Notes under the pieces: generated by a model
The model's input: the letters and a program-made list of their open reading frames with translations, nothing else
Told to the model about the DNA's origin: nothing
The model's database searches: none
Translations under genes and position numbers: made by a program
Assembly: GCF_000007145.1 (NCBI RefSeq)
Contig: NC_003902.1
Coordinates: 1,537,436-1,569,435 of the forward strand
Direction: 5' to 3'
Source of the DNA: Xanthomonas campestris pv. campestris str. ATCC 33913
GTDB taxonomy: Bacteria > Pseudomonadota > Gammaproteobacteria > Xanthomonadales > Xanthomonadaceae
Length of the DNA stretch: 32,000 bases
Shown here: positions 3,199 to 28,307 of the stretch, one piece after another
Layout of the letters: every line of letters starts with the position of its first letter
Position numbering within the stretch: position 1 is the first letter of the stretch

Positions 3199-3226
3199 GC
3201 GCACCGCGTGATCGCACGCGGTGCGC
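3199..3226. terminator. Hairpin between the convergent acvB and mprF genes (possible bidirectional terminator)
   Basis: GCGCACCGCG (3199-3208), an 8-nt loop tgatcgca, then CGCGGTGCGC (3217-3226). This is a perfect 10-bp GC-rich stem inside the 54-nt gap between the two stop codons. There is no clear U-tract. Confidence 0.5.
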
Positions 3227-3241
3227 GGGTCAGTTATCGCG

Positions 3242-5806
3242 TCAGTCCTGCCGGCCCGGGTCTACCGAGATCAGCCGAGTGACATCCAGCAGCGCGGCGG
3301 GCAGATGCATGCCGCCGGGCGCGACCAGATAGCGTGGGCGCCAGGTCGGTGCGAACTTGGATTTGAAGCGGCGCAGCCCGCTGAAGCCATAGAAGCGTTC
3401 GCCATGCCGCGCCACCAAGCTGGCGAAGCGATTCCAGCGGCCAGCCAGCCGATGCTCGGCCAGGCCCGACAGCGGTGCCATGCCCAGCGAGAAGCGCGTG
3501 TAGCCGTTGGCATGGCCCCACAGGAACAGCTCGATAAACAGGAAATCCATGGTGCCCTTGGGTGCCTGCGCGCTGTGCCGCATCAGGTCCACCGACAACT
3601 CGCCGCCGGCAGGCGCGCACCACACATTGGCGAACGCCACGATCTTGCCCTCCGCCTCGGCAACCGCCATCGGAAACCGGCGCAGGTAGTCCGGGTCGAA
3701 ACTACCCAGCGAGAAGCCTTTCTCTTCGCCGGCCTTTTCGTCCAGCCATTGCTCGGAGACCTCGCCCAGCTCTGCCATCACCGCATCCACCTGCTCGGGC
3801 TGCAGCATGCGGAAGCTCAGGCCGCCGCGCTTGCCGCGGTTCCAGGCCTGGCGCAGGTCGGCGCGGTCGCGGCCTTCCAGGGTGAAGCCCTCCAGCGGCA
3901 CGATCGCTTCTTCGCCCAGCTTGACCAGGGTCAGGCCCATGTCCAGATAGGTCTGCCAGTATTTCTCGCCCACCTGGTAGAACACCGGGCGCAGGCCCAT
4001 GTGGTCGGCTTCCTCGCGGAAGCGCCAGATCAGCGCACGCGCCACCTCCGGCGGCCCGACCGGGTCGCCCATCGAGATCAGCGAGCCGCCGTAGCGCTGC
4101 ATCATCACAAAGCCCAGGCCCTTCTCATCACGCAGGAACGCCTTGTCGCCGGTGAGCGCCAGGCAGGCCTGGGTGTCGGCGCTGCTGGCCAGCACCGGTG
4201 CCAGGGCCTGCAAGGCTTGCGCATCGGCTGGCGGCATTGGCCGGCGACCGCCGCGCAATAGGCGTGCGGTGCCGAACAGGATCACGCCCACGCACAGGAT
4301 CAGCAGCGCACGCAGCGCACGCGGCGCATTGGCCGAGGTGGCGAACTGCCACCACAGGTCGTTGCTGTATTCGACATGGCTGTAGACGAAGAACAACAGC
4401 CAGAACGTGGCCACCAGCACCAGCCCCAGATTGCTCAGCCAGCGCCACGACCAGGCTTCGTCCAGCAGCGCGCCCTGGCGATAGAACTCCCGGCGTGCCG
4501 CCCACAAGGCCACTGCGGCCAGTGCGGCCGACAGCGACACCGAGATATGGCTGCCGCGCAGCAGCGACAGCGGCGGCAGCAACACGCACACGCCCAGTGC
4601 CAGCACCCAGGCCGAATGGCTGCGGCGTTGCAGGCCCTGGCCGATTAGCAACAGCAGCATGCCGCCCAGGCTGACCAGCAGGTGCGAGGTCTCGATCAGC
4701 GGCAGCGGCGCCACCTCCTGACGTGCGCGTGGCGTGGGCAGGGTGCCGTCGATCACCAGCGCCGCACCTACCGCAAACACCGCCAAGGCCAGGATCTGCG
4801 GCAGCCACGGCCGCAAGGTCTTCCACACCGTGCGCGCGGTGCTGGCACTGGCGCGCACCGGTGCGCGCAGGCCGGTGGCCGCGGCCATGGCCACCGAAAT
4901 CAGCAACGGCACGATGTAATACGTGACCCGGTACGCCAGCGCGGCCGCCAGCACCGCCGCCGGGGTGACATGCGGCAGCAGCTTGAGCAGGCTCCACTCG
5001 AACACGCCCAGGCCGGCCGGCACGGTGGAGATCAGCCCGGCCACCACCGCCACCAGCCAGATGCCGATGAAGCCGAAATAGCCGGTGCCCGGATCGGGCG
5101 GCAGCAGCACGTAGAACGCCGCCGCGGCCAGGCCCAGTTCGACCACGCTGAGCGCAGTCACGCCCAGCACGGTGGTGCGGTCGGGCAGCCAGAAGCGATG
5201 GCTGCGGATGCCGAATTCGCGTCCGTGCCGGCCCACCAGCACCAGCATCGCCAGGTAACCGGCCAGCAGCGCGATGCCGGCGATGCGAATGCCTTCGGCG
5301 GCGATCGGCAGTGCACGTGCGGCCGCTTCGGGTTCGAGCATCAGCGCAATGCCGAGCAGCACCCAGGCGCCGAAGATGAAGCCCAGCGTGCTCATCAGCA
5401 CCACTTGGCCGATCTCGGCCAGGGTCAGCCCCACGCTGCCGTAGCCGCGCAAGCGCACCGCGCCGCCGGTGAGCGCCGCAAAGCCCAGTGTCTGCCCCAC
5501 CGCGTGCGCCATGAAGGCGGTGATGCCCACCCGCGCCGGATGCAGGCGCTTGCCGGTGCGCTTGAGGCCCACCCAGTCGAAGCCCACCAGGCACGCATAG
5601 CTGCTCAGGCCAAGCAGCAAGGTGAGTGCGATCTGGCCGGCGCCGAGTGCGCGGAACGCCTGCCGGATCTGGCGGTAGCCGTGATCGGTGAATTGCGAGG
5701 ACAGCGCGTGCAGCGCCATGGCCAGGATCGCCAGGCTGATGATCACGGGCAGCGCACGGCGCCAGCCGCTGGCGGTCGCTTCGGAAGGCACGGGGGTATC
5801 CGTCAT
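3242..5806 (-). CDS. mprF: Bifunctional aminoacyl(lysyl/alanyl)-phosphatidylglycerol synthase/flippase MprF
   Basis: The track ORF of 1031 aa is an upstream read-through. The ATG at 5806..5804 (MTDTPVPSEATASGWRRALPVIISLAILA) gives 854 aa. The N-terminal half is polytopic membrane and the C-terminal half is a DUF2156/LPG-synthase-type cytoplasmic domain (GFVMMQRYGGSLISMGDP..., FYQVGEKYWQTYLDMGL...). Confidence 0.85.
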   Translation of the reverse strand: MTDTPVPSEATASGWRRALPVIISLAILAMALHALSSQFTDHGYRQIRQAFRALGAGQIALTLLLGLSSYACLVGFDWVGLKRTGKRLHPARVGITAFMAHAVGQTLGFAALTGGAVRLRGYGSVGLTLAEIGQVVLMSTLGFIFGAWVLLGIALMLEPEAAARALPIAAEGIRIAGIALLAGYLAMLVLVGRHGREFGIRSHRFWLPDRTTVLGVTALSVVELGLAAAAFYVLLPPDPGTGYFGFIGIWLVAVVAGLISTVPAGLGVFEWSLLKLLPHVTPAAVLAAALAYRVTYYIVPLLISVAMAAATGLRAPVRASASTARTVWKTLRPWLPQILALAVFAVGAALVIDGTLPTPRARQEVAPLPLIETSHLLVSLGGMLLLLIGQGLQRRSHSAWVLALGVCVLLPPLSLLRGSHISVSLSAALAAVALWAARREFYRQGALLDEAWSWRWLSNLGLVLVATFWLLFFVYSHVEYSNDLWWQFATSANAPRALRALLILCVGVILFGTARLLRGGRRPMPPADAQALQALAPVLASSADTQACLALTGDKAFLRDEKGLGFVMMQRYGGSLISMGDPVGPPEVARALIWRFREEADHMGLRPVFYQVGEKYWQTYLDMGLTLVKLGEEAIVPLEGFTLEGRDRADLRQAWNRGKRGGLSFRMLQPEQVDAVMAELGEVSEQWLDEKAGEEKGFSLGSFDPDYLRRFPMAVAEAEGKIVAFANVWCAPAGGELSVDLMRHSAQAPKGTMDFLFIELFLWGHANGYTRFSLGMAPLSGLAEHRLAGRWNRFASLVARHGERFYGFSGLRRFKSKFAPTWRPRYLVAPGGMHLPAALLDVTRLISVDPGRQD

Positions 5807-6064
5807 GGGGGCAACGGGATCTGCTGAAAGGAGGGGAGTGCGCACGCGCCGCGGAGGCAGCAAGTGCGAAGGATCTGCATGGGCCGGACAACGTGGGAGT
5901 GCATGCAGCGTGGTCGCGTGGGCGCCGGTGGAGGGTGAACACAGGGTTCGATCGGGCCGACACATTGTCGGCCCTGGACGGCCGCGCGCATCATAGGCCA
6001 AACGGGCGCATGCGTGCGGTTGGAACGAAACGATGCAAAGCGATGCAGTGAAGGTGCAGACAGG

Positions 6065-6766
6065 ATGTTGAAGCGTGAGATGGCGCAAGGCAGGGGAGCT
6101 GATGCACAGGCCGTGCCAGGCGCGCCGCCGCGCTGGAGCGCGCATGCCGGCAGCACCGCCGCCGTGGTTGGCGTGGCATTCGTCGTGCTGGTGCTGACCC
6201 TGCAACTGATGCGTGCCGACCTGGACTGGGTGGGCGCGCAACTGAGCCTGTATCTGCACGGGCCCTACGGGTTGGTACTGCGCACCGCTTATTGCGTGCT
6301 GGCCGCGAGCATGGCGTGGTTGGCGCTGGGCCTGCATGCCGCGCTGATGCCAACCGCGCGCAGCCGCACCGTGCTGGGCTTGTTCTGGGCCGCGGCACTA
6401 GGCCTGAGCGCAGTCTCGATCGGCGACAGCTGGATGCCGACGCTAGCGCCGAACGCGGCGTTGATGGTGCATCTGTTGTCCGCGCAGGCCGCGTTTCTAT
6501 GCGTGATTGCCGGGCTGCTGCTGCAGTCGTGGTATTTCCGCAACGACCCACGCTGGCGCAGCCGCTTCGTGCCGGCCTTCGGCCTGGGCCTGGTTGCGTT
6601 TGCGGTCTTGCTGTTCAACGTGAGCGTGCACACCGCGCCACGCGGCATCAGCCAGAAGACCGCCATCGTGCTGATCGTGATCTGGTTGACGCTGGTGGGC
6701 AGTTGGCTGGCACGCGCTGCACGTTCATCGCATTCGCGTGACAATGCCCGGGTCAACCAACCGTAG
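6065..6766 (+). CDS. Polytopic membrane protein, resembles the DUF998 family
   Basis: The ORF contains 5-6 hydrophobic helices. The track start 6014 is an alternative codon, and ATG 6065 (MLKREMAQG...) is the first ATG. Family assignment is from memory only. Confidence 0.55.
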   Translation: MLKREMAQGRGADAQAVPGAPPRWSAHAGSTAAVVGVAFVVLVLTLQLMRADLDWVGAQLSLYLHGPYGLVLRTAYCVLAASMAWLALGLHAALMPTARSRTVLGLFWAAALGLSAVSIGDSWMPTLAPNAALMVHLLSAQAAFLCVIAGLLLQSWYFRNDPRWRSRFVPAFGLGLVAFAVLLFNVSVHTAPRGISQKTAIVLIVIWLTLVGSWLARAARSSHSRDNARVNQP

Positions 6767-6777
6767 GAAGCCTGAAG

Positions 6778-7125
6778 ATGCTGCAGCGATTCGATACCGG
6801 CCCGCGTATGTCCGAAATGACCGTCCATGGCGGCGTGTGCTACCTCGCCGGGCAGATTGCCGACGACACCAGCGAAGACATCACCGGGCAGACCCGTCAG
6901 GTGCTGGCCGAGATCGACAAGCTGCTGGCGATGGCCGCCAGCGACAAGACCAAGATTCTGCGTGCGGAAATCTTTCTTGCCGACATCGCCGATTTCGACG
7001 GGATGAACAAGGCCTGGGACGAGTGGGTGCCGCATGGCTTCACCCCGGCACGCGCCACCGTGGAAGCCAAGCTGGCGCGCCCGGAGTGGAAGGTGGAGAT
7101 CGTGATCACCGCAGCAACGAGCTGA
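6778..7125 (+). CDS. RidA/YjgF/L-PSP family reactive-intermediate deaminase
   Basis: 115-aa ORF with an AGGAAG ribosome-binding site 7 nt upstream of ATG 6778. Typical family layout: GGVCYLAGQIA, ITGQTRQVLAEID, ILRAEIFLADI, ARATVEAKLARPEWKVEI. Confidence 0.8.
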   Translation: MLQRFDTGPRMSEMTVHGGVCYLAGQIADDTSEDITGQTRQVLAEIDKLLAMAASDKTKILRAEIFLADIADFDGMNKAWDEWVPHGFTPARATVEAKLARPEWKVEIVITAATS

Positions 7126-7175
7126 TTGGCTGATCAATCACTGCGCGCGGTGCTGCGGCATCGCGCTGCGGGCCG

Positions 7176-7196
7176 GTCGGCAGCATGGCTGCCGAC
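7176..7196. terminator. Hairpin between convergent ridA-like gene and the last gene of the lipid operon
   Basis: GTCGGCAGC, loop atg, GCTGCCGAC. This is a perfect 9-bp stem with a 3-nt loop in the 97-nt convergent spacer. There is no U-tract. Confidence 0.4.
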
Positions 7197-7222
7197 TGAC
7201 CGAGCTGGTCAATCGGCGCAGG

Positions 7223-8293
7223 TCAGCGCTTGGCGAAGCGGTAATGCGCCACGCCCCATTCGCGGCCTTCGTCGTAGCCGAACAGCTCCGCGCAGGCCAG
7301 CCAGAACATGCGCCAGCGCTGCCACCAGCGCTGTGCATCCTCGCCGTAGGTCTGCCGCAGCAGCGGCATGATCTGTTCGCGGTGCCGGTCCTGGTTTTCC
7401 AGCCAGGCATTGGCGGTCTTTTCGTAATGCTCGCCGGACAACACCCAGCGCTGTTCGATCACCACATCCTGCTGAAACTGCAGCAGCGTATCGGCCGCCG
7501 GCATCAGCCCGCCGGTGAAGAAGTGCCGCCCCATCCAGTTGTCTTCGCCGGCCACTTCGAACGGGTAGGCCAGGTCGCGGTGGCAGAAGATATGCACGAA
7601 CAGCTTGCCGCCCGGCGCCAGCCAGCTGCCGATCCGCGACAGCAGCTCGCGGTAGTTGCGCATGTGCTCGAACATTTCCACCGAGACCACGCGATCGAAG
7701 CTGTCAGTGGGCAGTGCCAGCGCATTGACGTCGGCGGTGATGACCTGCACGTTGCTCAGCCCGCGCACGCGGCACTGTTCCAGGATGTGCGCGCGCTGCG
7801 GCCGCGAATTGGACACCGCGGTGATGCTGGCATTCGGATAGCGCTCGGCCATCCACAAGGTGAGCGAGCCCCAGCCGCAGCCCAGCTCCAGGATGCGCTG
7901 GCCATCGGCCAGTTCGGCGCGCTCGCCGTACAACGCCAGCATGCGCAGTTCGGCCGCGTCCAGGTCCGGCGTGGTCGCGTCCCAGTAACAGCTGCTGTAT
8001 TTCAGGCGCCGCCCCAGGCATAGGGTGAAGAACTGCGGGGGCAGCTCGTAATGCTGGCGATTGGCGGCATCGGTTTCGATCGCGATGGCGCTGCCGCGCA
8101 GGCTGTCGATGAAGGTGCGTTGGCGCTCGCCGCTGGCATCGGCGCCATCGCGGCGTTCGTCCAGCAGGCGCTGCGCGCATAGACGGCGGATGCCGTAACG
8201 CAACGCGGCATCGGGCAGCACGCCGGATTCGGCCAGGCGGGTGGCAAAGCCTTCTTCGGGATGCGCGGAGGGCGGGATGGTGACAGTGGACAT
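7223..8293 (-). CDS. SAM-dependent methyltransferase of the cyclopropane/mycolic-acid synthase (CMAS) family, second paralog in the operon
   Basis: The track ORF of 490 aa is over-extended. The ATG at 8293..8291 (MSTVTIPPSAHPEEGF) gives 356 aa. SAM-binding motif ILELGCGWGSLTLWMAERYP is present, and DRVVSVEMFEHM plus the C-terminal WRMFWLACAELF are typical of the CMAS fold. It lies 17 nt downstream of the DUF1295 gene. Confidence 0.85.
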   Translation of the reverse strand: MSTVTIPPSAHPEEGFATRLAESGVLPDAALRYGIRRLCAQRLLDERRDGADASGERQRTFIDSLRGSAIAIETDAANRQHYELPPQFFTLCLGRRLKYSSCYWDATTPDLDAAELRMLALYGERAELADGQRILELGCGWGSLTLWMAERYPNASITAVSNSRPQRAHILEQCRVRGLSNVQVITADVNALALPTDSFDRVVSVEMFEHMRNYRELLSRIGSWLAPGGKLFVHIFCHRDLAYPFEVAGEDNWMGRHFFTGGLMPAADTLLQFQQDVVIEQRWVLSGEHYEKTANAWLENQDRHREQIMPLLRQTYGEDAQRWWQRWRMFWLACAELFGYDEGREWGVAHYRFAKR

Positions 8294-8310: not shown

Positions 8311-9093
8311 TCAGGACGAAGGGGGAAGCGGGAAAAATGCGCTGGTGCTGCGTTGATACTGGGCGTAGTCCTCGCCACGCGAGCGCAGTGCCTGCTGCTC
8401 GGTATAGGGGATGCCGGTAAAGCGATACAGGAACACGAACATCACCACCGGGCCCAGCGCACACAGCGCCAGCAGCCACGGCCCCGCACCGACCGCCAGG
8501 GCCAGGTACGCAAACCAATGCACGAATTCGAAGAAGTAATTGGGATGCCGCGAATAGCGCCAGAGCCCGGTGCGACACGTCTTGCCGCGGTTGGCCGGGT
8601 TGGCCTTGTGCGCAGACAACTGCCGGTCGGCCAGCGCCTCGCCGCCGACGGCGATCAACCACACCACAATCGCCAGGCTGCTCCACACGCTCCATGCCGG
8701 GTTCGGGTTGCTGGCCGCGGCTAGGAACGGCACCGAGAACAGCACCACCACCATCGCCTGGGCCAGGAAAAAGCCCAGGAACTTGCGCTGATCGCCGTTC
8801 CAGTGCTCACGCAGGGCGCGGTAGCGGCCATCCTCGTGGGGGTCGCCGAACACGCGCACGCCCAGGTGCCAGGCAAGCCGTGCGCCCCACACGCCGCCGA
8901 GCACCGCCACCAGCACGCGTGGCAGCAGCGCACCCTCGGACATCCACGCGCAGTAAGGCGCAGCAACCGCCAGGCAGCCTGCCCATAACACGTCCACCGG
9001 GCCGGCGTTGCCACTGCGGCGTTGCCACAGCCAACCCAACACCATCACCACGGCGGCGAACACGCCGACATGCAGCAGCGGCCAGACAGTCAT
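8311..9093 (-). CDS. DUF1295 / steroid-5-alpha-reductase-like membrane protein
   Basis: 260-aa polytopic ORF with the C-terminal signature GLWRYSRHPNYFFEFVHWFAY, typical of the DUF1295/ICMT-like superfamily. Its ATG overlaps the upstream stop codon (ATGA at 9090-9093). Confidence 0.8.
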   Translation of the reverse strand: MTVWPLLHVGVFAAVVMVLGWLWQRRSGNAGPVDVLWAGCLAVAAPYCAWMSEGALLPRVLVAVLGGVWGARLAWHLGVRVFGDPHEDGRYRALREHWNGDQRKFLGFFLAQAMVVVLFSVPFLAAASNPNPAWSVWSSLAIVVWLIAVGGEALADRQLSAHKANPANRGKTCRTGLWRYSRHPNYFFEFVHWFAYLALAVGAGPWLLALCALGPVVMFVFLYRFTGIPYTEQQALRSRGEDYAQYQRSTSAFFPLPPSS

Positions 9094-9635
9094 TGCGGGT
9101 CTCCAGTGATGGGCTCAAACGCGGGGCGTGCCAGGCGCCGGGCATACAGCGAGAGCAGGCCGCAGGCCGCGCCCCAGCCAATCGCCAGCGCCAGCACCGC
9201 ACTGCGCTGCGGTGCCAGCAATTCGATGGCCTGCCAGCTGCGCTCGGCCAGCCAGTACGACAGCGGCCCGAAGACCGCGCCCAGCACAACCGCCAGCCAC
9301 GGGCGCTGCATCACCGTTGCCAGTGAATGATTGAGCGTGAGCGCAAATCCCAGCCAGAGCGCCAGGATCCACGCCGGCGCGAGCACGCTGCCCGGCCACG
9401 GCGCGGCGTAGCGCACCCAGTCGCCTGCGGCCAGTGTGGTGTCCAGCAACAGCCCCAGTGCGACGGCGGCCAGCAGCAACTGCCAGTCGCCGCGCGCGCG
9501 CCGCGTGGGCCACAGTTGGTAGAGCGCAAACAGCGCCAACGCCAGCAGCGTGGGCCACACGCGCCCACGCGCGGCTGAGCTGACCGCCACCAGCCACAGC
9601 ACCTGCAAGCCGACGTAGTTGCCCAGCTGCTTCAT
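9090..9635 (-). CDS. Small polytopic membrane protein, resembles DUF2878
   Basis: This is the C-terminal 181 aa of the 523-aa track ORF, beginning at ATG 9635..9633 (MKQLGNYVGLQVLWLVAV). It has about 5 hydrophobic helices. Both ends overlap neighbouring genes by ATGA (9632-9635 and 9090-9093). Family name is from memory of similar cfa clusters. Confidence 0.6.
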   Translation of the reverse strand: MKQLGNYVGLQVLWLVAVSSAARGRVWPTLLALALFALYQLWPTRRARGDWQLLLAAVALGLLLDTTLAAGDWVRYAAPWPGSVLAPAWILALWLGFALTLNHSLATVMQRPWLAVVLGAVFGPLSYWLAERSWQAIELLAPQRSAVLALAIGWGAACGLLSLYARRLARPAFEPITGDPQ

Positions 9636-10927
9636 GCGGCGCTGCTCAACCCGGGCACGAACTGCGGCGGACGTGCGCCCGGCTTGCTCAACCACAGATG
9701 CACATCGCCGATCGAGCGTTCCAGGAAACCGGCTTCGCAATAGGCCAGATAAAATTCCCACATGCGGATGAAGCGCTCGTCGTAGCCCAGTGCGCGCACC
9801 TGCGGCAGTTGCGCCATGAAGCGCTGCCGCCACGCACGCAGGGTCAGTGCATAGCTGGGGCCGATGTCTTCCAGATTGAACAGGCGCAGATCGCTGGCGC
9901 GGCCGATGGCGCCGGTCATCGCCGCCACCGAGGGAATGAAGCTGCCCGGGAAGATGTGCCGCTTGATGAAGTCCACCGAGCGCAACGCCTGCGCATAGCG
10001 ATGGTCTTCGATGGTGATCGCCTGGATCAGCGCCTCGCCCTCGTCGGTCAGCAGGCTGCCGACCTTGGCGAAGTAGGTGTCCAGGTATTGGTGCCCGATG
10101 GCCTCGATCATCTCGATCGACACCACGCGGTCGTAGTGGCCTTCCAGGTCGCGGTAGTCGCGCAGCAGCACCGTCACGCGCTCGCTCAAGCCGGCTGCAG
10201 CGATGCGCTGGGTGGCCAGTTCGAACTGTTCGCGCGAGATGGTCGTGGTGGTGACGCGGCAGCCATGTTCGCGTGCGGCATGCAGTGCAAACCCGCCCCA
10301 GCCGGTGCCGATTTCCACCACATGGTGCTGCGGGCCAAGGCGCAGTTTTTCGCAGATGCGTTCCAGCTTGCGGGTGGCTGCGCGCTCTAGCGCCGCCTCG
10401 CCCTGCGCTTCTTCGCCGTCGACGAAGATGGCCGAGGAGTACATCAGGTTGGCATCCAGGAACAACCGGAACAGCGGGTTGCCCAGGTCGTAATGCGCCG
10501 CGATGTTGCGCCGGCTGCCGCTGCGCGTATTGCGTGCCAGCGTATGCAGGCTGCGCATGGCCCAGCCGCCCAGGCGGGCGGTGCCGGTCTCCATCGCGTC
10601 CAGTCGGTCGCGGTTGCGCAGCAGCAGGCGCATCAGCGTCACCAGATCGTCGCACTGCCAATCGCCATCCATGTAGGCCTCGCCGGCGCCGACACTGCCG
10701 TTGAGCGCGGCCTGCCGATAGAAGCGCGGGTCGGTCACCCGCAACTGGGTCTGCAGCGCCTGCGTGCCGCTGGCATTGCCGAGGGTGGTGACGCGATCGG
10801 CTTCATGCAGCTGCAGCTGCCCATCGCGCAGGTCGCCCAGTGTGGCCAGCAGCCGCTTGCGCAACAGACGATCGGTCCACGAGGCCGCGCGCGGCGCGGC
10901 AGTGTCGGGCAGGGAGGTGGCACTCAT
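9632..10927 (-). CDS. cfa: Cyclopropane-fatty-acyl-phospholipid synthase family methyltransferase
   Basis: ATG at 10927..10925 (MSATSLPDTAAP...) gives 431 aa. SAM motif VVEIGTGWGGFALHAAREHG is present. Other matches are NIAAHYDLGNPLFRLFLD, DRVVSIEMIEAIG and WEFYLAYCEAGF, all classic for CFA synthases. The start overlaps the DUF1365 stop (ATGA at 10924-10927). Confidence 0.9.
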   Translation of the reverse strand: MSATSLPDTAAPRAASWTDRLLRKRLLATLGDLRDGQLQLHEADRVTTLGNASGTQALQTQLRVTDPRFYRQAALNGSVGAGEAYMDGDWQCDDLVTLMRLLLRNRDRLDAMETGTARLGGWAMRSLHTLARNTRSGSRRNIAAHYDLGNPLFRLFLDANLMYSSAIFVDGEEAQGEAALERAATRKLERICEKLRLGPQHHVVEIGTGWGGFALHAAREHGCRVTTTTISREQFELATQRIAAAGLSERVTVLLRDYRDLEGHYDRVVSIEMIEAIGHQYLDTYFAKVGSLLTDEGEALIQAITIEDHRYAQALRSVDFIKRHIFPGSFIPSVAAMTGAIGRASDLRLFNLEDIGPSYALTLRAWRQRFMAQLPQVRALGYDERFIRMWEFYLAYCEAGFLERSIGDVHLWLSKPGARPPQFVPGLSSAA

Positions 10928-11805
10928 GAGCGTTCTCGCACAGGCGGAGTGGGGTGATCGTGGACGGGGTTGCCGCGCAGCCACAGGCGCAGTGCCTGCC
11001 AATGGATGGCCAGCACCACCTGCACGGTCATCAAGGGGTAGCCAAGCAGCGTGCGCGCCAGCGTGCCTGCGGTCAGCGGCTGGCGCTGCAGCACCAGCGT
11101 GGCGTCGAAGCGGCGCGCCTGCTGCGCAGGGGGTTGCGGCGTGGCGTCGATGGCATCCAGCACATCCATGTGCACGCGCAGGTGTTCGGTGGGCACGCTG
11201 AAGCGCCAGTCGTAGTGGTGCTGCATGCCCATGAACGGCGACACGTGGAAGCGTTTATCGAAGCGCCAGGCATGCACATCCCGATGGCTGCGCGCCTGCG
11301 CCACCGGCAGCACATAGGTGTGGCGCTGCTGCCAGGGCGTGTTGGTGATTTCGGCCACAATCCAGCGCAGCCCGTCGTGGCGGTCGAAGCAGTAGTAGAA
11401 GCTGACCGGATTGAATACATGGCCGAAGTAACGCAGGTGCGTGAGCAGGCGGATCGCACCGTCCGGGCGGTCGCCGGTGTGGGCCTGCACGCAGTCGCGC
11501 ACGGCCTGGTCCAGCGGCACCTGCGGGTCGCCCAGGTAGTCGCTGCGGCGGAACTGCGCCAGATTCGCGCGGCCCACCGACCACAGCCAGCGGCGCGCAA
11601 AGACGTGCTCCAGCTCGGCCAGATCCAGATACATCAGGAACAGGCGGTAGCGGAATTGCAGCGGCTTGGGGGCGTAGCGGCGGTGCCGCACCCAGCCGGT
11701 ATAGATGGCGCTGCGCAACGGGCCGTGCAGCCGTCCGGTACCACCGCCCTCGGTGGGCGGCAGTGGAACGGCATCGGTGATCGCTTCGCGCAGCAGCTGG
11801 GTCAC
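10924..11805 (-). CDS. DUF1365 family protein
   Basis: SAIYTGWVRHRRYAPKPLQFRYRLFLMYLDLAEL and THLRYFGHVFNPVSFYYCF are characteristic DUF1365 blocks. There is no in-frame ATG near the N-terminus. A GTG at 11805..11803 overlaps the upstream TGA (GTGA), and a second GTG lies at 11808. Start confidence is low but gene confidence is high. Confidence 0.8.
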   Translation of the reverse strand: MTQLLREAITDAVPLPPTEGGGTGRLHGPLRSAIYTGWVRHRRYAPKPLQFRYRLFLMYLDLAELEHVFARRWLWSVGRANLAQFRRSDYLGDPQVPLDQAVRDCVQAHTGDRPDGAIRLLTHLRYFGHVFNPVSFYYCFDRHDGLRWIVAEITNTPWQQRHTYVLPVAQARSHRDVHAWRFDKRFHVSPFMGMQHHYDWRFSVPTEHLRVHMDVLDAIDATPQPPAQQARRFDATLVLQRQPLTAGTLARTLLGYPLMTVQVVLAIHWQALRLWLRGNPVHDHPTPPVRERS

Positions 11806-13052
11806 CACGGCACTCCCAGTGCATGCGCCACGTCCACGCCGCTGCGCAGGCCATCTTCGTGGAAGCCGAAGCCCCACGCCGCGCCGGCAAACCAGGTGTG
11901 CCGCTGGCCCTGGATCTGCGCCTTGCGCGCCTGCGCATCGAGTGCGGCGGCGTTCTGCACCGGGTGGCGGTAGCGCATGCGGCGCAGCACTTTCTCCGGT
12001 GCGATGTCCTGGTCGCGATTGAGGCTGACGATGAACGGCTGCGGTGCGTTGATCGACTGCAGCGCGTTCATCCAGTAGCTCACCGTGCACGGCGCCTGCG
12101 GGTCGGCCGGCACATGCGCATTCCAGGCCGCCCAGGCGCGGCGGTCGCGCGGCAGCACGCTGGCATCGGTGTGCAGCACGGTGTCGTTGTTCTGGTAGGT
12201 GATGGCGCCCAGGATCTGCTGCTCGGCAGGCGTGGCATCGCTGAGCAAGGCCAATGCATCGTCGGCATGGCAGGCGAGTACCACCTCGTCGAAATGCTCG
12301 TCGCCGCGCAACGAGGTCACGACCACGCCGTTGCCAGCCCGGCGGACGGCGTGCACCGGCGTGGACAGGCGTTCCTGCACCTGCCAACGCCGCCGCAACG
12401 CGCGCACATAGCTCGACGAACCACCGCGCACCACCTGCCACTGCGGCCGTCCGCTGATCTGCAGCATGTGGTGATTGGCCATGAAGCCGATCAACTGGCC
12501 CATCGGAAATTCGAGAATGCGTTGCGAGGGCGAGGACCACAGCGCCGAGGCCATCGGCACCAGGTGCTGGTCGCGAAAGGTGTCCGAATAGCCGTGCCGG
12601 TGCAGGTACTCGCCCAACGTGCTGAAACGCTCGTCGCTGGTCAGTACCGCAGGCGCCTGCCGGTAAAAACGCCGCAGATTGGCCAGCATGCCCCAGAAGC
12701 GTGGGCTGAGCAGGTTGCGGCGCTGGCAGAACAGCCCTCCGAGCGAGCCGGCGTTGTATTCGAGCCCGCTGCGCGCGTCGTGCACCGAAAAACTCATGGT
12801 GGTGGACTGCGACGCCACGTCGATTTCGGCAAACAACCGGGTGAGTAAGGGGTAGTGCTGCGGGTTGAACACGATGAAGCCGCTGTCCACCGCGTAACGC
12901 TGGCCCTCCAGCTGGATGTCATGCGTGTGCGTGTGGCCGCCGAGATAATCGGCGGCCTCGAACAGCGTCACTTCGTAACGCCGCGACAGCAGCCATGCGG
13001 CGCCCAGGCCAGCGATTCCACTGCCGACCACCGCGATCCTGCCACCGCTCAT
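11802..13052 (-). CDS. FAD-dependent amine-oxidase/phytoene-desaturase-like oxidoreductase
   Basis: ATG at 13052..13050 (MSGGRIAVVGSGIAGLGAAWLL) gives a Rossmann GxGxxG dinucleotide-binding N-terminus and 416 aa. The start overlaps the desaturase stop (ATGA at 13049-13052). The rest of the 591-aa track ORF is read-through. Confidence 0.85.
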   Translation of the reverse strand: MSGGRIAVVGSGIAGLGAAWLLSRRYEVTLFEAADYLGGHTHTHDIQLEGQRYAVDSGFIVFNPQHYPLLTRLFAEIDVASQSTTMSFSVHDARSGLEYNAGSLGGLFCQRRNLLSPRFWGMLANLRRFYRQAPAVLTSDERFSTLGEYLHRHGYSDTFRDQHLVPMASALWSSPSQRILEFPMGQLIGFMANHHMLQISGRPQWQVVRGGSSSYVRALRRRWQVQERLSTPVHAVRRAGNGVVVTSLRGDEHFDEVVLACHADDALALLSDATPAEQQILGAITYQNNDTVLHTDASVLPRDRRAWAAWNAHVPADPQAPCTVSYWMNALQSINAPQPFIVSLNRDQDIAPEKVLRRMRYRHPVQNAAALDAQARKAQIQGQRHTWFAGAAWGFGFHEDGLRSGVDVAHALGVPW

Positions 13053-14050
13053 CGCGCCACCCGTCCGGCGCGTCGCGTCAGCATGGCGGGCATCGGTTTG
13101 AGATCCCACACCAGGCCCACCCACGACATCACCGTGAGCCCGTACCAGGTCATGTCGTATTCCCACCAACGCACGCCCTGGCGCGCCGAGCCGGGAAAGA
13201 AATGATGGTTGTTGTGCCAGCCCTCGCCGAAGGTGAGCAGCGCCAGCAACCAGTTGTTGCGGCTGTCGTCGCGGGTGTCGAAGCGCCGGCTGCCGAAGCG
13301 GTGCGCCAGCGAATTGATGGTGAAGGTGGCATGGAACAACGCCACCGTGGACAGCACGAAGCCCCACACCAGCAACTGCGCGCCACTGGTGTGCAGGCCA
13401 GGCGCTGCAGCCGCCAGCCAGTCGCCCAGCAGGTACAGGCCCAGTGCCAGCAGCACCGGCATCACGATGTCGAAGCGGTCCAGAAATCGCAGCTCGGTGA
13501 AGCGGCGCAGATCCGGAATCACTTCCCAATCGGTGCGGAAATTGCGCGGGGTCAGGAACCAGCCGGTATGGCTCCACCAGAAGCCGTGCTGTGCCGGCGA
13601 ATGCGGGTCACGGCCGGTGTCGGTATGCCGGTGATGGTTGCGATGGTGTGCGGCCCACCACAGCGGCCCACGTTGCACGCAGGTGGCGGCGATCGCGGCG
13701 AACACGAACTGCACCACGCGCGAGGTCTTGAATGCGCGGTGCGAGAAATAGCGGTGATAGAACCCGGTCAGCGCGAACATGCGCAGCGCGTACAGCGCCA
13801 CGGCCATGCTCACTGCGAACCACGACACACCGACCCAGAACACCGCAAAGCAGGCCAGGTGCAAGGCGATGAACGGCAGCGCACGCAGCCAGTCGATGCG
13901 GTCCGCGCGGGCTTCGTCCAGCGGTTCGTCGGTTTGCGAATCCACCCAGCGACGCAGGCTGCCGAACCGCCGGGCCTTGCCCGCGCGCTGTGGCGGGGTG
14001 GCGGGGTGGGGCGTGGGTGCGACGCGGGGGTCGAGTCCAGAGCTCGGCAC
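13049..14050 (-). CDS. Membrane fatty-acid (acyl-CoA/acyl-lipid delta-9 type) desaturase
   Basis: Three histidine boxes are present: HRYFSH, HHRNHHRH and HNNHH, with hydrophobic segments between them. The track start at 14098 is a TTG. I prefer GTG 14050..14048 because GGAGAA sits 6 nt upstream, giving 333 aa. The start is uncertain within about 50 nt. Confidence 0.85.
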   Translation of the reverse strand: MPSSGLDPRVAPTPHPATPPQRAGKARRFGSLRRWVDSQTDEPLDEARADRIDWLRALPFIALHLACFAVFWVGVSWFAVSMAVALYALRMFALTGFYHRYFSHRAFKTSRVVQFVFAAIAATCVQRGPLWWAAHHRNHHRHTDTGRDPHSPAQHGFWWSHTGWFLTPRNFRTDWEVIPDLRRFTELRFLDRFDIVMPVLLALGLYLLGDWLAAAAPGLHTSGAQLLVWGFVLSTVALFHATFTINSLAHRFGSRRFDTRDDSRNNWLLALLTFGEGWHNNHHFFPGSARQGVRWWEYDMTWYGLTVMSWVGLVWDLKPMPAMLTRRAGRVAR

Positions 14051-14078: not shown

Positions 14079-14107
14079 TTTACGGATGCTGCCGACAAAC
14101 AGATGCA
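14079..14107 (-). promoter_or_regulatory. Candidate ECF-type promoter P1 of the lipid-modification operon (TGCATC-N17-CGTAAA)
   Basis: The minus strand reads gTGCATC tgtttgtcggcagcatc CGTAAA. The -10-like element ends 28 nt upstream of GTG 14050. The same GCATC-N17-CGTA core recurs at 17123-17150 with the same geometry. Confidence 0.45.
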
Positions 14108-14181
14108 CCAGTCCGCTTGATCGTCGCACGCATCCGGCGTCTACGGTTGGGAACGCAAGCGATTCGCGTGGCGGCGCACAC

Positions 14182-14212
14182 AAAAACATCCGCGCAAAGC
14201 GCGTGCGCGCGG
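14182..14212 (-). terminator. Rho-independent-terminator-like hairpin with a T5 run, downstream of the anti-sigma gene
   Basis: The minus strand reads CCGCGC gcacgcgcttt GCGCGG atg TTTTT gtgtg. This is a GC-only 6-bp stem (an alternative is CGCGC-ttt-GCGCG) followed by a T-run that is rare in this GC-rich DNA. It lies between the sigma/anti-sigma unit and promoter P1. Confidence 0.45.
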
Positions 14213-14367
14213 ACGAGTCTGCTTTGCCAGAAGAAGAAAACGGCTGCACGGCTGCGCGGCAGGCGCTGACGGTGCGCAGGTGCAGCAGCTCGCTCGAACG
14301 ATGCCGTGCGTGCGCATGGTCCGTGCTGCTGGACGACGGCGCGCGAGGTGTTTGCCAATGACGCTGC

Positions 14368-14395
14368 CAGCGGCATCCTTTGACGGATGCCGCTG
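14368..14395 (-). other. Perfect 11-bp stem-loop 11 nt downstream of the anti-sigma stop codon
   Basis: CAGCGGCATCC (14368-14378), loop tttgac, GGATGCCGCTG (14385-14395). No U-tract follows on the minus strand. It could be a terminator, an RNA-stability element or a processing element. Confidence 0.35.
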
Positions 14396-14406
14396 CACTC
14401 AGGCGA

Positions 14407-15246
14407 TCAAGGCGCCATGGCCAACGTGCTGATGCCGCCCTTGGCCACCACGGTGCCGGTGGCCACGCCGCCCGGCGCACCACCCGGTGGTTCCAGGGTG
14501 ACGGCCAGGATCGCCTCGTTGCTGAGCATCGGCATCAACGGCGCCGGGATCGACGCGCGCCGCGCACGCTGGTCGTCGAACACGCCCATCGAGTGCGCCT
14601 TGCCATCGGGGGTGATCAGCCACAGTTCCGGCACCTTGCCGGCGGTGGCGGTGCGATCCAGCGGCGTCACGGTGATGACCTGCTTGTCGGCATCCATCAA
14701 CGCCACATAGCCTGGGCGCCCATCGGCGGTGGCCAGTGTGGAGGTCATCGCAATGCCGGTTGCCGGTGGCTTGGCCGGCGGTGTCTGCACGATCGGCGTG
14801 TTCTGCACCGGGCCAGATGGCGGCGCGGTCGGCGGGGCGCGCACGCTCAGCAAGGCCAGCACGCAGACCGCTGCAGTGGCCAGGCCACCGGCACTGGCCC
14901 AGCGCCAGAAGCGCACGCTGTTCCATAGCGGAACCGCCGCCGGTGGCGCCGGGCTCTGCACGCCGGATGCGGGCACCGCATGCAACGGTGTATCGAAGCC
15001 CAGTGCCTGGCGCACACGCGTCCAGACCTGGTCGGCCGGTGTCACCGCGGCGATTTCTTCCAGCAGCGGCGCCAGATGTTCTTGCCATTGCGCCACTGCC
15101 TGCGCGAACTGCGCATCGGTGGCGATGCGCTGCTCCACGGCCAGACGGTCGTCGGCGCTGAGCAGGCCCAGCACATACTCGCCGGCCAGCACGTCGCGGG
15201 GTGGTTCCTGGTCGATGGGGAAGGGCGTGCTCATCGTTCCAGACAT
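14407..15246 (-). CDS. Anti-sigma factor, RskA (anti-sigma-K) type, single-pass membrane protein
   Basis: N-terminal anti-sigma domain (LAGEYVLGLLSADDRLAVEQRIATDAQFAQAVAQWQEHL) without an HxxxCxxC zinc motif. One TM helix (WRWASAGGLATAAVCVLALLSV) follows. The C-terminal RskA-like domain has PELWLITPDGKAHSMGVF and ILAVTLEPPGG. Two candidate ATGs exist: 15246, and 15234 which overlaps the sigma stop (ATGA at 15231-15234). Confidence 0.8.
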   Translation of the reverse strand: MSGTMSTPFPIDQEPPRDVLAGEYVLGLLSADDRLAVEQRIATDAQFAQAVAQWQEHLAPLLEEIAAVTPADQVWTRVRQALGFDTPLHAVPASGVQSPAPPAAVPLWNSVRFWRWASAGGLATAAVCVLALLSVRAPPTAPPSGPVQNTPIVQTPPAKPPATGIAMTSTLATADGRPGYVALMDADKQVITVTPLDRTATAGKVPELWLITPDGKAHSMGVFDDQRARRASIPAPLMPMLSNEAILAVTLEPPGGAPGGVATGTVVAKGGISTLAMAP

Positions 15247-15794
15247 GCCTTGAGTTTGGCCAGACCCCGGCGGATCCAGCTTTTGACCGTGCCAATCGGC
15301 GTATCGGTGCGCTCGGCCAGTTCTTCGTAGGTGATGCCTTCGAAGAACGCGGTGCGGATCAGCTCGCTGCGCGGCGGTTCCAGTTCGGCCAGGCAGTGAT
15401 CGATGCGGCGGCGCGTGGTGAGGCGTTCGGCGCGCTCCAACGGCGAGGCATCGGCCGAGCGCAGTTCGCCGGCATCGTCCAACGCCACGTTACGGCGCTG
15501 CGGCGCGGTGGCGCGCAGATGGTCGATGGCCTTGTTGCGCGCAATCATCGCCAGCCAGGTCAGCCCGCGCGCACGGCTCGGGTCGAACTGCCCGGCCTTG
15601 TGCCAGATCAGCGTAAACACGTCCTGCAGCACTTCTTCGGCTTCGGCGCGCTGCGGGATCATGCGCAGGCATACCCCGAACAGCTTGGGCGAGGTTTGCC
15701 GGTACAACGCTTCGAAGGCGTGGCGGTCGCCGCCCGCCGTTGCGGTGAGCAGGCGTCCGGTCTCATCGTCGTCGTGGCCAGGAATGGCACTCAT
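15231..15794 (-). CDS. ECF (group IV) sigma-70 family RNA polymerase sigma factor
   Basis: ATG at 15794..15792 (MSAIPGHDDDETGRLL) gives 187 aa. Region 2 is DVFTLIWHKAGQFDPSRARGLTWLAMIARNKAIDHLR and region 4 is ELIRTAFFEGITYEELAERTDTPIGTVKSWIRRGLAKLKACL. The remainder of the 362-aa track ORF is read-through into the upstream gene. Confidence 0.9.
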   Translation of the reverse strand: MSAIPGHDDDETGRLLTATAGGDRHAFEALYRQTSPKLFGVCLRMIPQRAEAEEVLQDVFTLIWHKAGQFDPSRARGLTWLAMIARNKAIDHLRATAPQRRNVALDDAGELRSADASPLERAERLTTRRRIDHCLAELEPPRSELIRTAFFEGITYEELAERTDTPIGTVKSWIRRGLAKLKACLER

Positions 15795-15852
15795 GCGGTC
15801 GGGCGTTGGCGGAGGTGGCGCCGATCGTACCGGACTGAGCCGAAAGAGTCTT

Positions 15853-16221
15853 TCATCGGTGCTTGAACCACAGCAGCACGGCGGCGAGCAGCAGCAGGAT
15901 TTCCACACCCGCCAGTGCCACCGTTGGCGCGGAGACCGGCCACAGGCGCGAGAGCGAGACGGTGCGGAACAGCACGATGGGCACGTAGAACGCCAGTGCG
16001 ACCAGCAGGCCGGTGCGCGGTTGATCGATCCAGGCGAAATAGCCGAACAGGAAGGCCATGCCCAACTGCAGCCCGCCATAGATGACCAGGTATTCGGACT
16101 GGCCAGCCGGCGACAGCTGCGTGTAGCCCACCGCCGTGGCGGTCTTGCTTGGCGAGAGGGTGCACCAGATCGCCAGGACGACATAGAGCACTGCGTTGAT
16201 CCAGAGATAGGCCTTGGCCAT
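15853..16221 (-). CDS. Small 4-TM membrane protein, resembles DUF4345
   Basis: ATG at 16221..16219 (MAKAYLWINAVLYVVLAIW) gives 122 aa with four hydrophobic helices. An AGGAG ribosome-binding site lies 8 nt upstream. It sits 58 nt upstream of the sigma gene on the same strand. Confidence 0.6.
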   Translation of the reverse strand: MAKAYLWINAVLYVVLAIWCTLSPSKTATAVGYTQLSPAGQSEYLVIYGGLQLGMAFLFGYFAWIDQPRTGLLVALAFYVPIVLFRTVSLSRLWPVSAPTVALAGVEILLLLAAVLLWFKHR

Positions 16222-16303
16222 GACGATGCTCCTGCAGGGGAAAGGGCTGCCCGGGCCGTTGTACGCAAGCGCGTGTGGGCGGGTGTGAAGAGCGCGGCGG
16301 TGC

Positions 16304-17092
16304 TCACGGCACGTCGCATCGCGCAACCAGCGGTTGCTCGCGGGCCTGGCGCAGCGACTCGGCGTTGGCTGGCTGCGCCGGTGTGTCGGGAAACACGATG
16401 CGCACGCGCGGATAGCGGCCATTGGCATCGCGCAGATTGCCCACGCCACGGAATTCCAGTAGGCGCTTGTCGGCGATGGCATAGGTGACTTCCAGGGCCG
16501 GCAGCGCCGCGCCATACCAGGCATCCAGGCTGACCTTGTAGCGGCGCTGCCCGGCGGTTTCGCCGATGCGTTGCACGCGGAACGTCAGTTGCCGCTGCAG
16601 GCTGGGCAACACGAATTCCACCTGCTGCGCAGCGCTGCCAAGGGCGGCCCAGTGCGTGCGCAGATACGCATCGAAGCCGGCATCGATGACGCGTGGCGTC
16701 TCGGTCGCCGGCAGTGCGGTGCGGCGTTCCGGCTTGCCCGGGAGCTGCTGGTACATCTCGCGCACACCGTCGCGCTGCCGCACGCCTTCGCGATAACCAT
16801 CGCGGCCATCGACCAGGCTGAAATTGGGCGCACTGCCGCCGCCATCGACCTGTTTGCGCGCGAACGGCTGCCCGTCCTTGCAGCGGTACAGCACCAACCG
16901 CCCGCCGTCATCGAGCAGCCAATGCGACTCGCGGTAGCGCAGCGCACCGCTGTCGCCATCGAAGGCATCGCCGTCGACGCGGGTGACCGCGGCGGCAGCG
17001 CCCAACGGCAGGCAGGCCAGCACCAATAGCAGCAACGGCGGTTTGGGGCGGCAAAGCGTGGCGAGCTTGGTAACGGCGGCGGGCAGGCGCAT
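16304..17092 (-). CDS. Exported protein of unknown function, with a signal peptide and possible lipobox LVLAC
   Basis: 262-aa ORF starting at ATG 17092, with GAGGAA 8 nt upstream. Hydrophobic N-terminus PPLLLLVLACLPLGAAAAV. The remainder is hydrophilic with no motif I recognise. Third-position GC is high, consistent with real coding sequence. Confidence 0.6.
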   Translation of the reverse strand: MRLPAAVTKLATLCRPKPPLLLLVLACLPLGAAAAVTRVDGDAFDGDSGALRYRESHWLLDDGGRLVLYRCKDGQPFARKQVDGGGSAPNFSLVDGRDGYREGVRQRDGVREMYQQLPGKPERRTALPATETPRVIDAGFDAYLRTHWAALGSAAQQVEFVLPSLQRQLTFRVQRIGETAGQRRYKVSLDAWYGAALPALEVTYAIADKRLLEFRGVGNLRDANGRYPRVRIVFPDTPAQPANAESLRQAREQPLVARCDVP

Positions 17093-17122
17093 CGGCGCGT
17101 TCCTCGATGACAGTCCTGACCT

Positions 17123-17150
17123 GATACGAGCGCGTCCGCAGCACGGATGC
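17123..17150 (-). promoter_or_regulatory. Candidate ECF-type promoter P2 of the exported-protein / membrane-protein / sigma / anti-sigma unit (GCATCC-N16-CGTATC)
   Basis: The minus strand reads cCGCATC cgtgctgcggacgcgct CGTATC. The -10-like element ends 30 nt upstream of ATG 17092. The core GCATC-N17-CGTA is identical to P1 at 14079-14107. Confidence 0.45.
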
Positions 17151-17540
17151 GGCGGGAGGCGTCAGGGGGTTCCTGAGGTTGGAGGATGGGCGGGCGGCGA
17201 GCGTCTGTGACAGTAATCGGCGCACGTGGCCAGGTGCGGGGTGCCGGTCGGGGTGATGCGGCTGGCTGGCGGGGGTGGGGAGCTGGTGCTGATACTGATG
17301 CCTGGAGCGGGCGAACAACCGCGCTCAACGATGTGCGCCTCGCCACCCCCTGCTTCACTCAGTGCCCTTCGGCATTCGGGGATCTGACGACGTGTCGCCA
17401 TGTAGAGGCGAAGGCGCAGAGGGCCCTGGGGCGCGTGGTTCATGCGCTTGGGCGATGCCATCATTCCGTCTGCTCGGCATCGCCGTTGGCGGCCAGGGCG
17501 CGGACACCGTCGAATAGGCGCGGACTATGCCTGCGGACCT

Positions 17541-17565
17541 GCGCAGCCGTTTTCGACCGCTGCGC
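17541..17565 (-). terminator. Hairpin immediately after the ferredoxin gene stop codon
   Basis: GCGCAGC (17541-17547) pairs with GCTGCGC (17559-17565) across an 11-nt loop. The structure abuts the TAA at 17566-17568. It is a weak terminator candidate without a U-tract. Confidence 0.3.
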
Positions 17566-27348: not shown

Positions 27349-28307
27349 CTATTGTTCCCCGCCAACCGCGCGTCGGTGCGCCCTTCAGTGATGTCTTGCA
27401 GCGCGACGCTGAGGTGGTGCTGGACGGCGCGCTGGCCACCGAGCTGGAACAGCGTGGCTGTGATCTCAACGACGCCTTGTGGTCGGCACGGGTGTTGATG
27501 GAGCAGCCGGAACTGATCTACCAGGTGCACCGCGACTACTTCGCCGCCGGTGCGCAATGCGCGATCACCGCCAGCTACCAGGCCACGCCGCAGGGCTTTG
27601 CCGCGCGCGGGCTGGGCCTGGCGCAGTCGCAGGCGTTGATCGCACGCAGCGTGGCGCTGGCGGCGCAGGCGCGCGCGGACCACCTGGCCGCGCATCCGCA
27701 GGCGGCGCCGCTGTGGGTGGCCGGCTCGGTGGGGCCGTATGGCGCCTATCTGGCGGATGGTTCCGAATACCGCGGCGACTACGCGCTGCCGGTGGCGCAG
27801 ATGCTCGACTTCCATCGCCCGCGCATCGCGGCGCTGGTGGATGCCGGCGTGGACCTATTGGCCTGCGAAACCTTGCCCTCGGCCAGTGAGATCACCGCGC
27901 TGCGCCTGTTGCTGGAGGAGTTCCCGCAGGTGCATGCGTGGTTTTCGTTCACCCTGCGCGATGCCGCGCATCTGAGCGATGGCACGCCACTGGCGCAAGT
28001 GATTCCGGCTCTGGACGCGTGCCCGCAGGTGGTCGCGGTGGGCATCAATTGCATTGCGATCGAGCAGGTCACCGCCGCGCTGCAGTCGCTGGCCGCGCTC
28101 ACCAGCTTGCCGCTGGTGGTGTATCCCAATTCCGGTGAGCACTACGACGCCAGCGACAAGCGCTGGCATGCGGGAACCACAGTGGCGTGTTCACTGGCGA
28201 CGCAACGCGCGCAATGGCATGCGGCCGGTGCGCGTTTGATTGGTGGCTGCTGCCGCACCACGCCGGCCGACATCGCCGCACTGGTGGCGGCGCGTACGGC
28301 TGGCTGA
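27345..28307 (+). CDS. mmuM: Homocysteine S-methyltransferase
   Basis: ATG 27345 ([10 protein letters not shown]...) gives 320 aa. The Pfam S-methyl_trans layout is present: [32 protein letters not shown] and the zinc-ligand motif [12 protein letters not shown]. Confidence 0.85.

Follow-up and report, generated by a model that had tools for sequence, protein, structure and literature searches.

What does a plant pathogen's sigma factor of the extracytoplasmic function (ECF) type control, and from which promoters, when two transcription units at its own locus begin with the same short motif? We address this question for Xanthomonas campestris pv. campestris str. ATCC 33913, using a 32-kb stretch of its genome (NC_003902.1, positions 1,537,436 to 1,569,435; hereafter the window, to whose first base all X. 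campestris coordinates refer). The gene in question, a SigK-like sigma gene on the minus strand, belongs to a four-gene unit that also encodes its RskA-type anti-sigma factor, and this unit is followed on the same strand by a seven-gene lipid operon. An initial annotation had pointed to a shared GCATC-N17-CGTA motif upstream of both units and had predicted that the sigma factor drives the two of them. Our analysis makes it very probable that the locus encodes a sigma/RskA module of ECF18 type and that this module has two cognate promoters: P1 for its own four-gene operon and P2 for the lipid operon. We regard P1 and P2 as cognate promoters because the sites are exact, share their geometry, are conserved, co-occur with the sigma factor and agree with the published consensus of its group. 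Literature searches returned no description of this locus in Xanthomonas. The central features are the following.

17125..17151, minus strand: predicted promoter P1 of the sigma unit, with -35 element cGCATCC and -10 element CGTAt (syntenic conservation, match to the ECF18 consensus)
15231..15794, minus strand: ECF sigma factor of 187 amino acids, SigK-like (Pfam, PDB profile match, cysteine pair)
14407..15234, minus strand: RskA-type anti-sigma factor of 275 amino acids (RskA_C, 1.1e-21), its ATG overlapping the sigma stop codon as ATGA
14081..14107, minus strand: predicted promoter P2 of the lipid operon, with -35 element tGCATCt and -10 element CGTAa (conserved at all syntenic loci)

One motif in front of two transcription units

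An exact search of both strands of the window for GCATC-N17-CGTA returned two copies, both on the minus strand. The count expected from dinucleotide shuffles was 0.21, and one shuffle in 100 contained two matches. At P2, GCATC occupies 14106..14102 and CGTA 14084..14081, separated by the 17-nt spacer tgtttgtcggcagcatc; at P1 the two blocks lie at 17150..17146 and 17128..17125, around the 17-nt spacer cgtgctgcggacgcgct. Re-reading both copies on the minus strand upheld the motif pair of the initial annotation, including its coordinates for the TGCATC..CGTAAA block (14107..14079); the CGCATC..CGTATC block spans 17151..17123, its 5′ end having been placed one base off. The distances to the start codons had been given correctly, with 28 nt from CGTAAA to the desaturase GTG (14050) and 30 nt from CGTATC to the ATG of the exported protein (17092), as had the intervening ribosome-binding sites, GGAGAA and GAGGAA, respectively. 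From the position of the motif, transcription is predicted to start at about 17119-17117 for P1 and at about 14075-14073 for P2.

The exact N17 search, with its two sites, also bore out the earlier impression that the window's other intergenic regions lack the motif. When spacers of 16 to 18 nt were allowed, one additional match appeared (27804..27780, minus strand, 16-nt spacer). We rejected it as a chance occurrence; it falls, in antisense orientation, inside the coding sequence of a homocysteine S-methyltransferase (27264-28307, plus strand). Variants with one mismatch were not enriched in the window (11 versus 8.4 expected) and, being at chance level, do not allow any further regulon member to be claimed there. 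A second GCATC within the P2 spacer (14090..14086, minus strand) abuts CGTA directly (agcatcCGTA). It was likewise rejected as a functional element, as it is specific to X. campestris and reads GCGTC in other species.

The motif accompanies the sigma/anti-sigma pair across species

A scan with the sigma protein, restricted to one genome per species, yielded 79 loci. Twenty-three of them (L007-L029; from Xanthomonas species, Lysobacter, Luteimonas, Dokdonella and other Lysobacteraceae) form a syntenic set that shares the sigma factor, RskA, the desaturase and further lipid genes, mostly with the exported protein upstream; four more loci—L086 from the Stenotrophomonas rhizophila group, and L089-L091—were reached through homologues of the exported protein. 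Conservation at orthologous loci, which a role as cognate promoters leads one to expect, was found throughout: GCATC-N17-CGTA stands at both positions in every syntenic locus examined (23/23, plus the four additional loci). The spacer is fixed at 17 nt, while its sequence is alike only in close Xanthomonas relatives and otherwise unrelated. In alignments, P1 and P2 appear as conserved islands amid otherwise unalignable spacer DNA.

Counts over the whole collection show the same preference for a single spacing. The sigma strand of the 79 loci carries 86 exact N17 sites, as against 1-7 for each of the other spacer lengths between 12 and 23, and nine N17 sites lie on the opposite strand. A site with the 17-nt spacer occurs no more than 1.7 kb ahead of the sigma gene at 46 of 79 loci (0-1 for spacers of 15, 16, 18 and 19 nt) and within 400 nt after rskA at 34 of 75 (none for these other spacers). 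To avoid circularity, we additionally enumerated all dyads consisting of a 5-mer, a gap of 13 to 21 nt and a 4-mer in eleven divergent loci. The top dyad was GCATC-17-CGTA, present in 11/11 loci in both regions searched, namely 2.9 kb covering the interval from rskA to the desaturase and the 1.7 kb that precede the sigma gene. In the second and larger of these sets, coding-sequence patterns brought the control strand to 10/11 loci, and we therefore treat the first set as the decisive one. Forty-three non-redundant sites gave the extended consensus T/c-GCATC-C ... CGTA-t/a; the two promoters are of the form T/cGCATCC-N16-CGTAt.

Beyond the syntenic set, the motif recurs at distant sigma/RskA loci in two places, shortly before the sigma gene and shortly behind rskA. 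It accompanies these relatives in Gamma-, Beta- and Alphaproteobacteria irrespective of the target gene, be it a fasciclin, MsrB, DUF4331 or lipid gene. Where the lipid operon is missing, the target after rskA is a secreted fasciclin-domain protein in Paraburkholderia, Novosphingobium and one Lysobacter genome (fasciclin-target loci L039 7303-7959, L035 7216-7848 and L030 4686-5340) and MsrB in Sphingomicrobium (L043 5508-6030). Fasciclin-domain targets resemble the SigK regulon of Mycobacterium tuberculosis, mpt70/mpt83. In Marinobacter, a copy of the motif is also divergent from the sigma gene and lies upstream of a large exported DUF4331 protein (L065 5858-5883, L075 4614-4639, L079 4617-4642 and L054 828-853, all on the minus strand), which suggests that this protein is a different conserved target in that genus.

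The sigma factor fits the ECF18 group

The sigma protein consists of regions 2 and 4 only (Pfam Sigma70_r2, 6.8e-16; Sigma70_r4_2, 5.2e-13) and is identical in several complete genomes. Among solved structures, M. tuberculosis SigK is the best match (7.5e-24), and Cys134 (IDHCLAEL) and Cys184 (LKACLE) align with its cysteine pair in 4nqw; both residues are kept in the Paraburkholderia relative. A conserved cysteine pair, Cys133/Cys183 in SigK, is typical of ECF18/19 (PMC7509140, PMC7826278; the former also covers mpt70p). Among the NCBIfam models, the equivalog PRK12534 scored 415 bits and the SigK subfamily model 143 bits, under its cutoff of 226. The anti-sigma factor spans the membrane once, at about residues 112-134, with its RskA_C domain on the periplasmic side, and its N-terminal 90 residues contain no His/Cys zinc motif of the kind that marks ChrR-type proteins.

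The promoters point in the same direction. In the ECF Hub, the predicted ECF18 consensus is xGCATCC at -35 and xxCGTATx at -10, and that of ECF11 is xGTGATC and xxCGTATA (Table 4 of a 2026 study of Cupriavidus metallidurans, PMC13492112). P1, as cGCATCC-N16-CGTAt, equals the published ECF18 promoter consensus. A GCATCC-type -35 element is present at both sites and at all orthologous loci, none of which shows the ECF11 pattern TGATCC-N16-18-CGTA. The SigK match, the cysteine pair, the RskA partner and the promoter consensus fit an assignment of the sigma factor to ECF18, within the RpoT/SigK-like clade ECF18-ECF19. The proposal that this sigma factor reads the promoters of both units gains support from footprinting, from sigma co-occurrence, from the unbiased dyad search and from the ECF18 consensus.

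Described ECF18/ECF19 systems with RskA—M. tuberculosis SigK-RskA, Pseudomonas putida RpoT and C. metallidurans RpoP—share with the X. campestris locus the two-domain sigma factor, the cysteine pair and a single-pass RskA_C anti-sigma factor encoded downstream. They also share an autoregulatory promoter with a second copy after the anti-sigma gene for an adjacent target, built from GCATCC and CGTAT. The X. campestris locus differs in its adjacent target, a seven-gene lipid operon rather than the fasciclin protein of the Paraburkholderia, Novosphingobium and Lysobacter loci examined, and in the two extra genes, for the exported protein and a DUF4345 protein, with which its sigma operon opens.

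A probable furan or cyclopropane lipid operon lies behind P2

The unit downstream of P2 comprises seven genes whose ends overlap or almost abut.

13049..14050, minus strand: membrane fatty acid desaturase (PF00487), with a GTG start that is invariant across species
11802..13052, minus strand: flavin adenine dinucleotide (FAD) amine-oxidase-family protein of the UfaD family (Amino_oxidase, 8.2e-19)
10924..11808, minus strand: DUF1365 protein of the UfaO family (DUF1365, 7.2e-85)
9632..10927, minus strand: S-adenosylmethionine methyltransferase resembling cyclopropane fatty acid (CFA) synthase, UfaM/Cfa family (CMAS, 2.3e-74)
9090..9635, minus strand: DUF2878 membrane protein, its ATG overlapping the preceding stop codon
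8311..9093, minus strand: DUF1295 membrane protein (family match)
7223..8293, minus strand: another CMAS-family methyltransferase, with whose gene the operon closes (family match)

In Rhodobacter sphaeroides, the CFA-synthase-like UfaM, the amine-oxidase-family UfaD and the DUF1365 protein UfaO convert vaccenate into a methylated furan fatty acid (PMC7380195). All three enzyme families of this pathway are represented in the X. campestris operon, the correspondence being one of families. The output of the operon is probably a set of remodelled acyl chains, whether methylated, furan or cyclopropane.

Equivalents of these lipid genes belong to the RpoE regulon in R. sphaeroides (PMC7380195, PMC5507510), and the ChrR systems of R. 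sphaeroides and Pseudomonas syringae (PSPTO_1043) use TGATCC-N-CGTA (PMC5507510). The RpoE-ChrR system, which belongs to ECF11, resembles the locus studied here in placing UfaD, UfaO and a CFA-synthase-like methylase for furan fatty acids under an ECF sigma factor with a -10 CGTA. It differs in its soluble zinc/cupin ChrR, as opposed to a membrane-bound RskA, and in its -35 element, TGATCC rather than GCATCC; the R. sphaeroides operon as described also comes without the desaturase, DUF2878 and DUF1295 genes.

The nearest experimental parallel is a nine-gene lipid cluster of like composition in Stenotrophomonas maltophilia, which deletion of the anti-sigma gene induces 165- to 700-fold in a sigma-dependent manner (PMC11832516). 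There, the sigma operon rpoEc-chrR-chrA autoregulates, a 'sigma box' found with MEME lies upstream of both units, and the phenotype consists of menadione tolerance and beta-lactam susceptibility (PMC11832516). As at the X. campestris locus, an ECF/anti-sigma pair has beside it a cluster, smlt2375-smlt2367, that combines a periplasmic hypothetical protein, a desaturase, an FAD oxidoreductase, a hypothetical protein and two CFA synthases with two membrane proteins between them. By its published description, the S. maltophilia system has an anti-sigma factor called ChrR-type, two units that diverge where those of X. campestris stand in tandem, and a requirement for a third gene, chrA. In the S. 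rhizophila group, the tandem order and the RskA-type anti-sigma gene are found together with GCATC-N17-CGTA sites. Homologues sharing at least 75% identity with the S. rhizophila-type desaturase do not include that of S. maltophilia, which suggests a separate lineage. Compared by published description, the S. maltophilia pair is probably a different regulatory module acting on a related lipid cluster.

A further case comes from a metagenome-assembled genome of Novosphingobium (L048), in which back-to-back motifs (11998-12059) occupy a divergent intergenic region 5 kb from the sigma/RskA pair. An amine-oxidase (UfaD-like)/DUF1365/CFA synthase cluster leads away from it in one direction and a DUF1295 gene in the other; a third copy of the motif points away from the sigma gene, ahead of an esterase gene. 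On sequence grounds, this is an independent association of the promoter type with lipid genes.

At the far end of the operon, gene content varies. A lipocalin gene closes both the S. rhizophila-type operon (L086 18012-18548) and the published S. maltophilia cluster; none was detected after the last methyltransferase gene in the X. campestris window (6767..7222). Just beyond the lipid operon, the window contains, on the plus strand, genes for a VirJ-domain protein (1772-3187) and a DUF998 protein (6014-6766) and, on the minus strand, one for an MprF-like lysyl-phosphatidylglycerol synthase (within 3242-6337). This group (1772..6766) represents a second membrane-lipid function beside the operon, with no motif upstream.

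Which sigma factor reads the sites, and is P2 needed?

The sites could be real ECF promoters that are read mainly by another ECF sigma factor, for instance one of the ECF11/ChrR type, with the adjacent sigma gene as a target rather than the driver. The -10 element CGTA is common to ECF11, ECF18, ECF26 and ECF37, among which the authors of the Cupriavidus study expect cross-talk (PMC13492112), and in S. maltophilia and R. sphaeroides it is sigma factors of the ChrR type that control homologous lipid clusters. Yet the -35 element is GCATCC and not the ECF11 (G)TGATCC, and the motif tracks the sigma/RskA pair across three proteobacterial classes whatever the neighbouring target. We judge this alternative to be very unlikely.

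Several observations do weigh against an ECF18 module that reads both of its promoters. The R. sphaeroides ECF11 factor RpoE matches the sigma protein nearly as well as SigK does (1e-23), and with a -10 CGTA in common, cross-recognition of the sites by another sigma factor is possible. The exact motif is missing in about one third of the distant sigma relatives, mostly Rhodobacteraceae. Lastly, a consensus scan of 13900-17700 found no sigma-70-type promoter able to prime the loop.

A second alternative retains P1 as the working promoter and lets the lipid operon be transcribed by read-through from the sigma unit, with P2 weak or vestigial. It turns on what lies between the two units, where we noted two hairpins.

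14365..14397, minus strand: stem-loop directly after the anti-sigma stop codon, likely the terminator of the sigma unit (-28.7 kcal/mol, z -3.9)
14181..14209, minus strand: second terminator-like hairpin with a T-run, weak on its own (z -1.3)

L007 (z -4.2) and L016 (z -5.1) each have a hairpin of different sequence where the first of these stands. The hairpin after the anti-sigma gene likely ends the sigma-unit transcript, and it is because of this strong hairpin that the lipid operon would need a second promoter. Read-through is made thinkable by the common orientation of all eleven genes and by the want of a canonical U-tract after the hairpin, so that termination may be partial. Against it stand the conservation of P2, as strict as that of P1 everywhere and even where the gap between rskA and the desaturase shrinks to about 90 nt, the presence of the motif after rskA and before unrelated target genes at distant loci, and the conservation of the hairpins by position rather than sequence. 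Transcription of the lipid operon from P1 alone therefore strikes us as highly improbable.

Coincidence, or retention of the repeat for a reason other than initiation such as binding of a non-sigma regulator, is an explanation to which we give next to no credence: nine specified bases are few and one shuffled window in 100 does contain two matches, but the more than 10-fold excess of the 17-nt spacer (79 loci), the fixed strand, position and start-codon distance, the -35/-10 promoter shape implied by a rigid spacer length with free spacer sequence, and the identity of the motif with an independently published ECF consensus all speak otherwise.

DNA around the promoters

Two spacers near the promoters differ in length between species. 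The gap from rskA to P2 measures about 300 nt in X. campestris; most other Xanthomonas species have about 170 nt. The 474-nt spacer between P1 and a ferredoxin-like gene (17152..17565) is highly variable in length and resists alignment among Xanthomonas species, whose sequences become conserved again only from about 35 nt before the -35 element onwards. An Rfam scan of the whole window matched no family, so that a riboswitch or small RNA is not the explanation of the conserved blocks.

Just before P1, eleven Xanthomonas loci (L007 4618-4634 and ten others) carry a perfect 17-bp palindrome, GTCAGGAACGTCCTGAC, whose end lies 9 nt ahead of the -35 element. Neither the desaturase promoter nor the loci outside Xanthomonas have this palindrome, which may be the operator of a dimeric regulator. 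X. campestris retains a degenerate copy.

17161..17177, minus strand: degenerate palindrome copy CTCAGGAACCCCCTGAC, recognized by alignment with other Xanthomonas

The two leading genes of the sigma unit

P1 precedes two genes that stand ahead of the sigma gene.

16304..17092, minus strand: exported protein of 262 amino acids, first gene of the sigma unit (signal peptide, no Pfam family)
15853..16221, minus strand: DUF4345 small multi-pass membrane protein of 122 amino acids (PF14248, 27 bits versus a cutoff of 26.5; hydrophobic segments)

The exported protein has 819 homologues at E <= 1e-5, the closest of them annotated as X. campestris, with Cys71 and Cys259 invariant, and opens the same gene arrangement in L086 and L089-L091. 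No Pfam or NCBIfam model matches it, and a search of its sequence profile against the PDB gave no match. Its AlphaFold2 (AF2) model is of high confidence (pLDDT 89.8). Foldseek placed RseB first (2v43; E 7e-4, TM 0.32), followed by many LolA structures (TM 0.35-0.42, target-normalised), all of them weak matches, and a Pfam LolA_3 match appeared in one of 32 homologues (E 0.012). We take a LolA/RseB-like periplasmic lipid-binding protein as a lead rather than a result.

The comparison with Escherichia coli RpoE-RseA-RseB is of interest here, as that system pairs a membrane anti-sigma factor with a co-transcribed periplasmic protein of LolA-like fold, and RseB is the top Foldseek match of the exported protein. 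The exported protein, however, matches this fold weakly (TM 0.32) and shows no similarity in sequence; the two systems differ in gene order and sigma group, and neither RseC nor DegS logic is evident at the X. campestris locus.

A proposed regulatory circuit and its meaning

By analogy with ECF sigma factors in general and SigK-RskA in particular, RskA, a single-pass membrane protein, would sequester the sigma factor, and a signal of envelope, lipid or oxidative nature, or a redox change at the cysteine pair, would set it free. Holoenzyme at P1 would then amplify the exported protein, DUF4345, the sigma factor and the anti-sigma factor, a positive autoregulation with the anti-sigma gene on the same transcript, and holoenzyme at P2 would express the seven-gene lipid operon. 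Transcription would begin some 6-8 nt past CGTA and yield leaders about 25 nt long, and the induced operon would remodel the acyl chains of the membrane.

The architecture of this module and its promoter motif are conventional, already known for ECF18, and expected rather than surprising. What is added here is that an ECF18/RskA module, with two extra genes ahead of it, is probably coupled, to judge from gene content and promoter sequence, to what is likely a furan/cyclopropane lipid operon. A farther-reaching scenario is that the furan/cyclopropane-lipid operon of the Lysobacteraceae was rewired from a soluble ChrR sensor to a membrane-bound RskA ECF18 module. The conserved exported LolA/RseB-like protein, which heads the autoregulated operon, would then be a periplasmic lipid-binding partner that gates RskA on damaged or altered envelope lipids or shuttles modified lipids, and the palindrome upstream of P1 would add a second regulator. 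We put this scenario forward tentatively and consider it, as a whole, unlikely.

For Xanthomonas, an uncharacterised ECF sigma factor gains a precise predicted promoter, two defined units and a testable minimal regulon. The module links RskA-type envelope signalling to genes whose relatives make furan fatty acids, membrane protectants against reactive oxygen, which could matter for a plant pathogen that faces light and oxidative bursts. The comparison with related genera further suggests that the same lipid operon has come under different types of ECF sigma factor, which would be a clean case of regulatory module exchange. If the rewiring scenario were true, a leaf-surface pathogen would possess a lipid-sensing feedback loop over the acyl-chain chemistry of its membrane.

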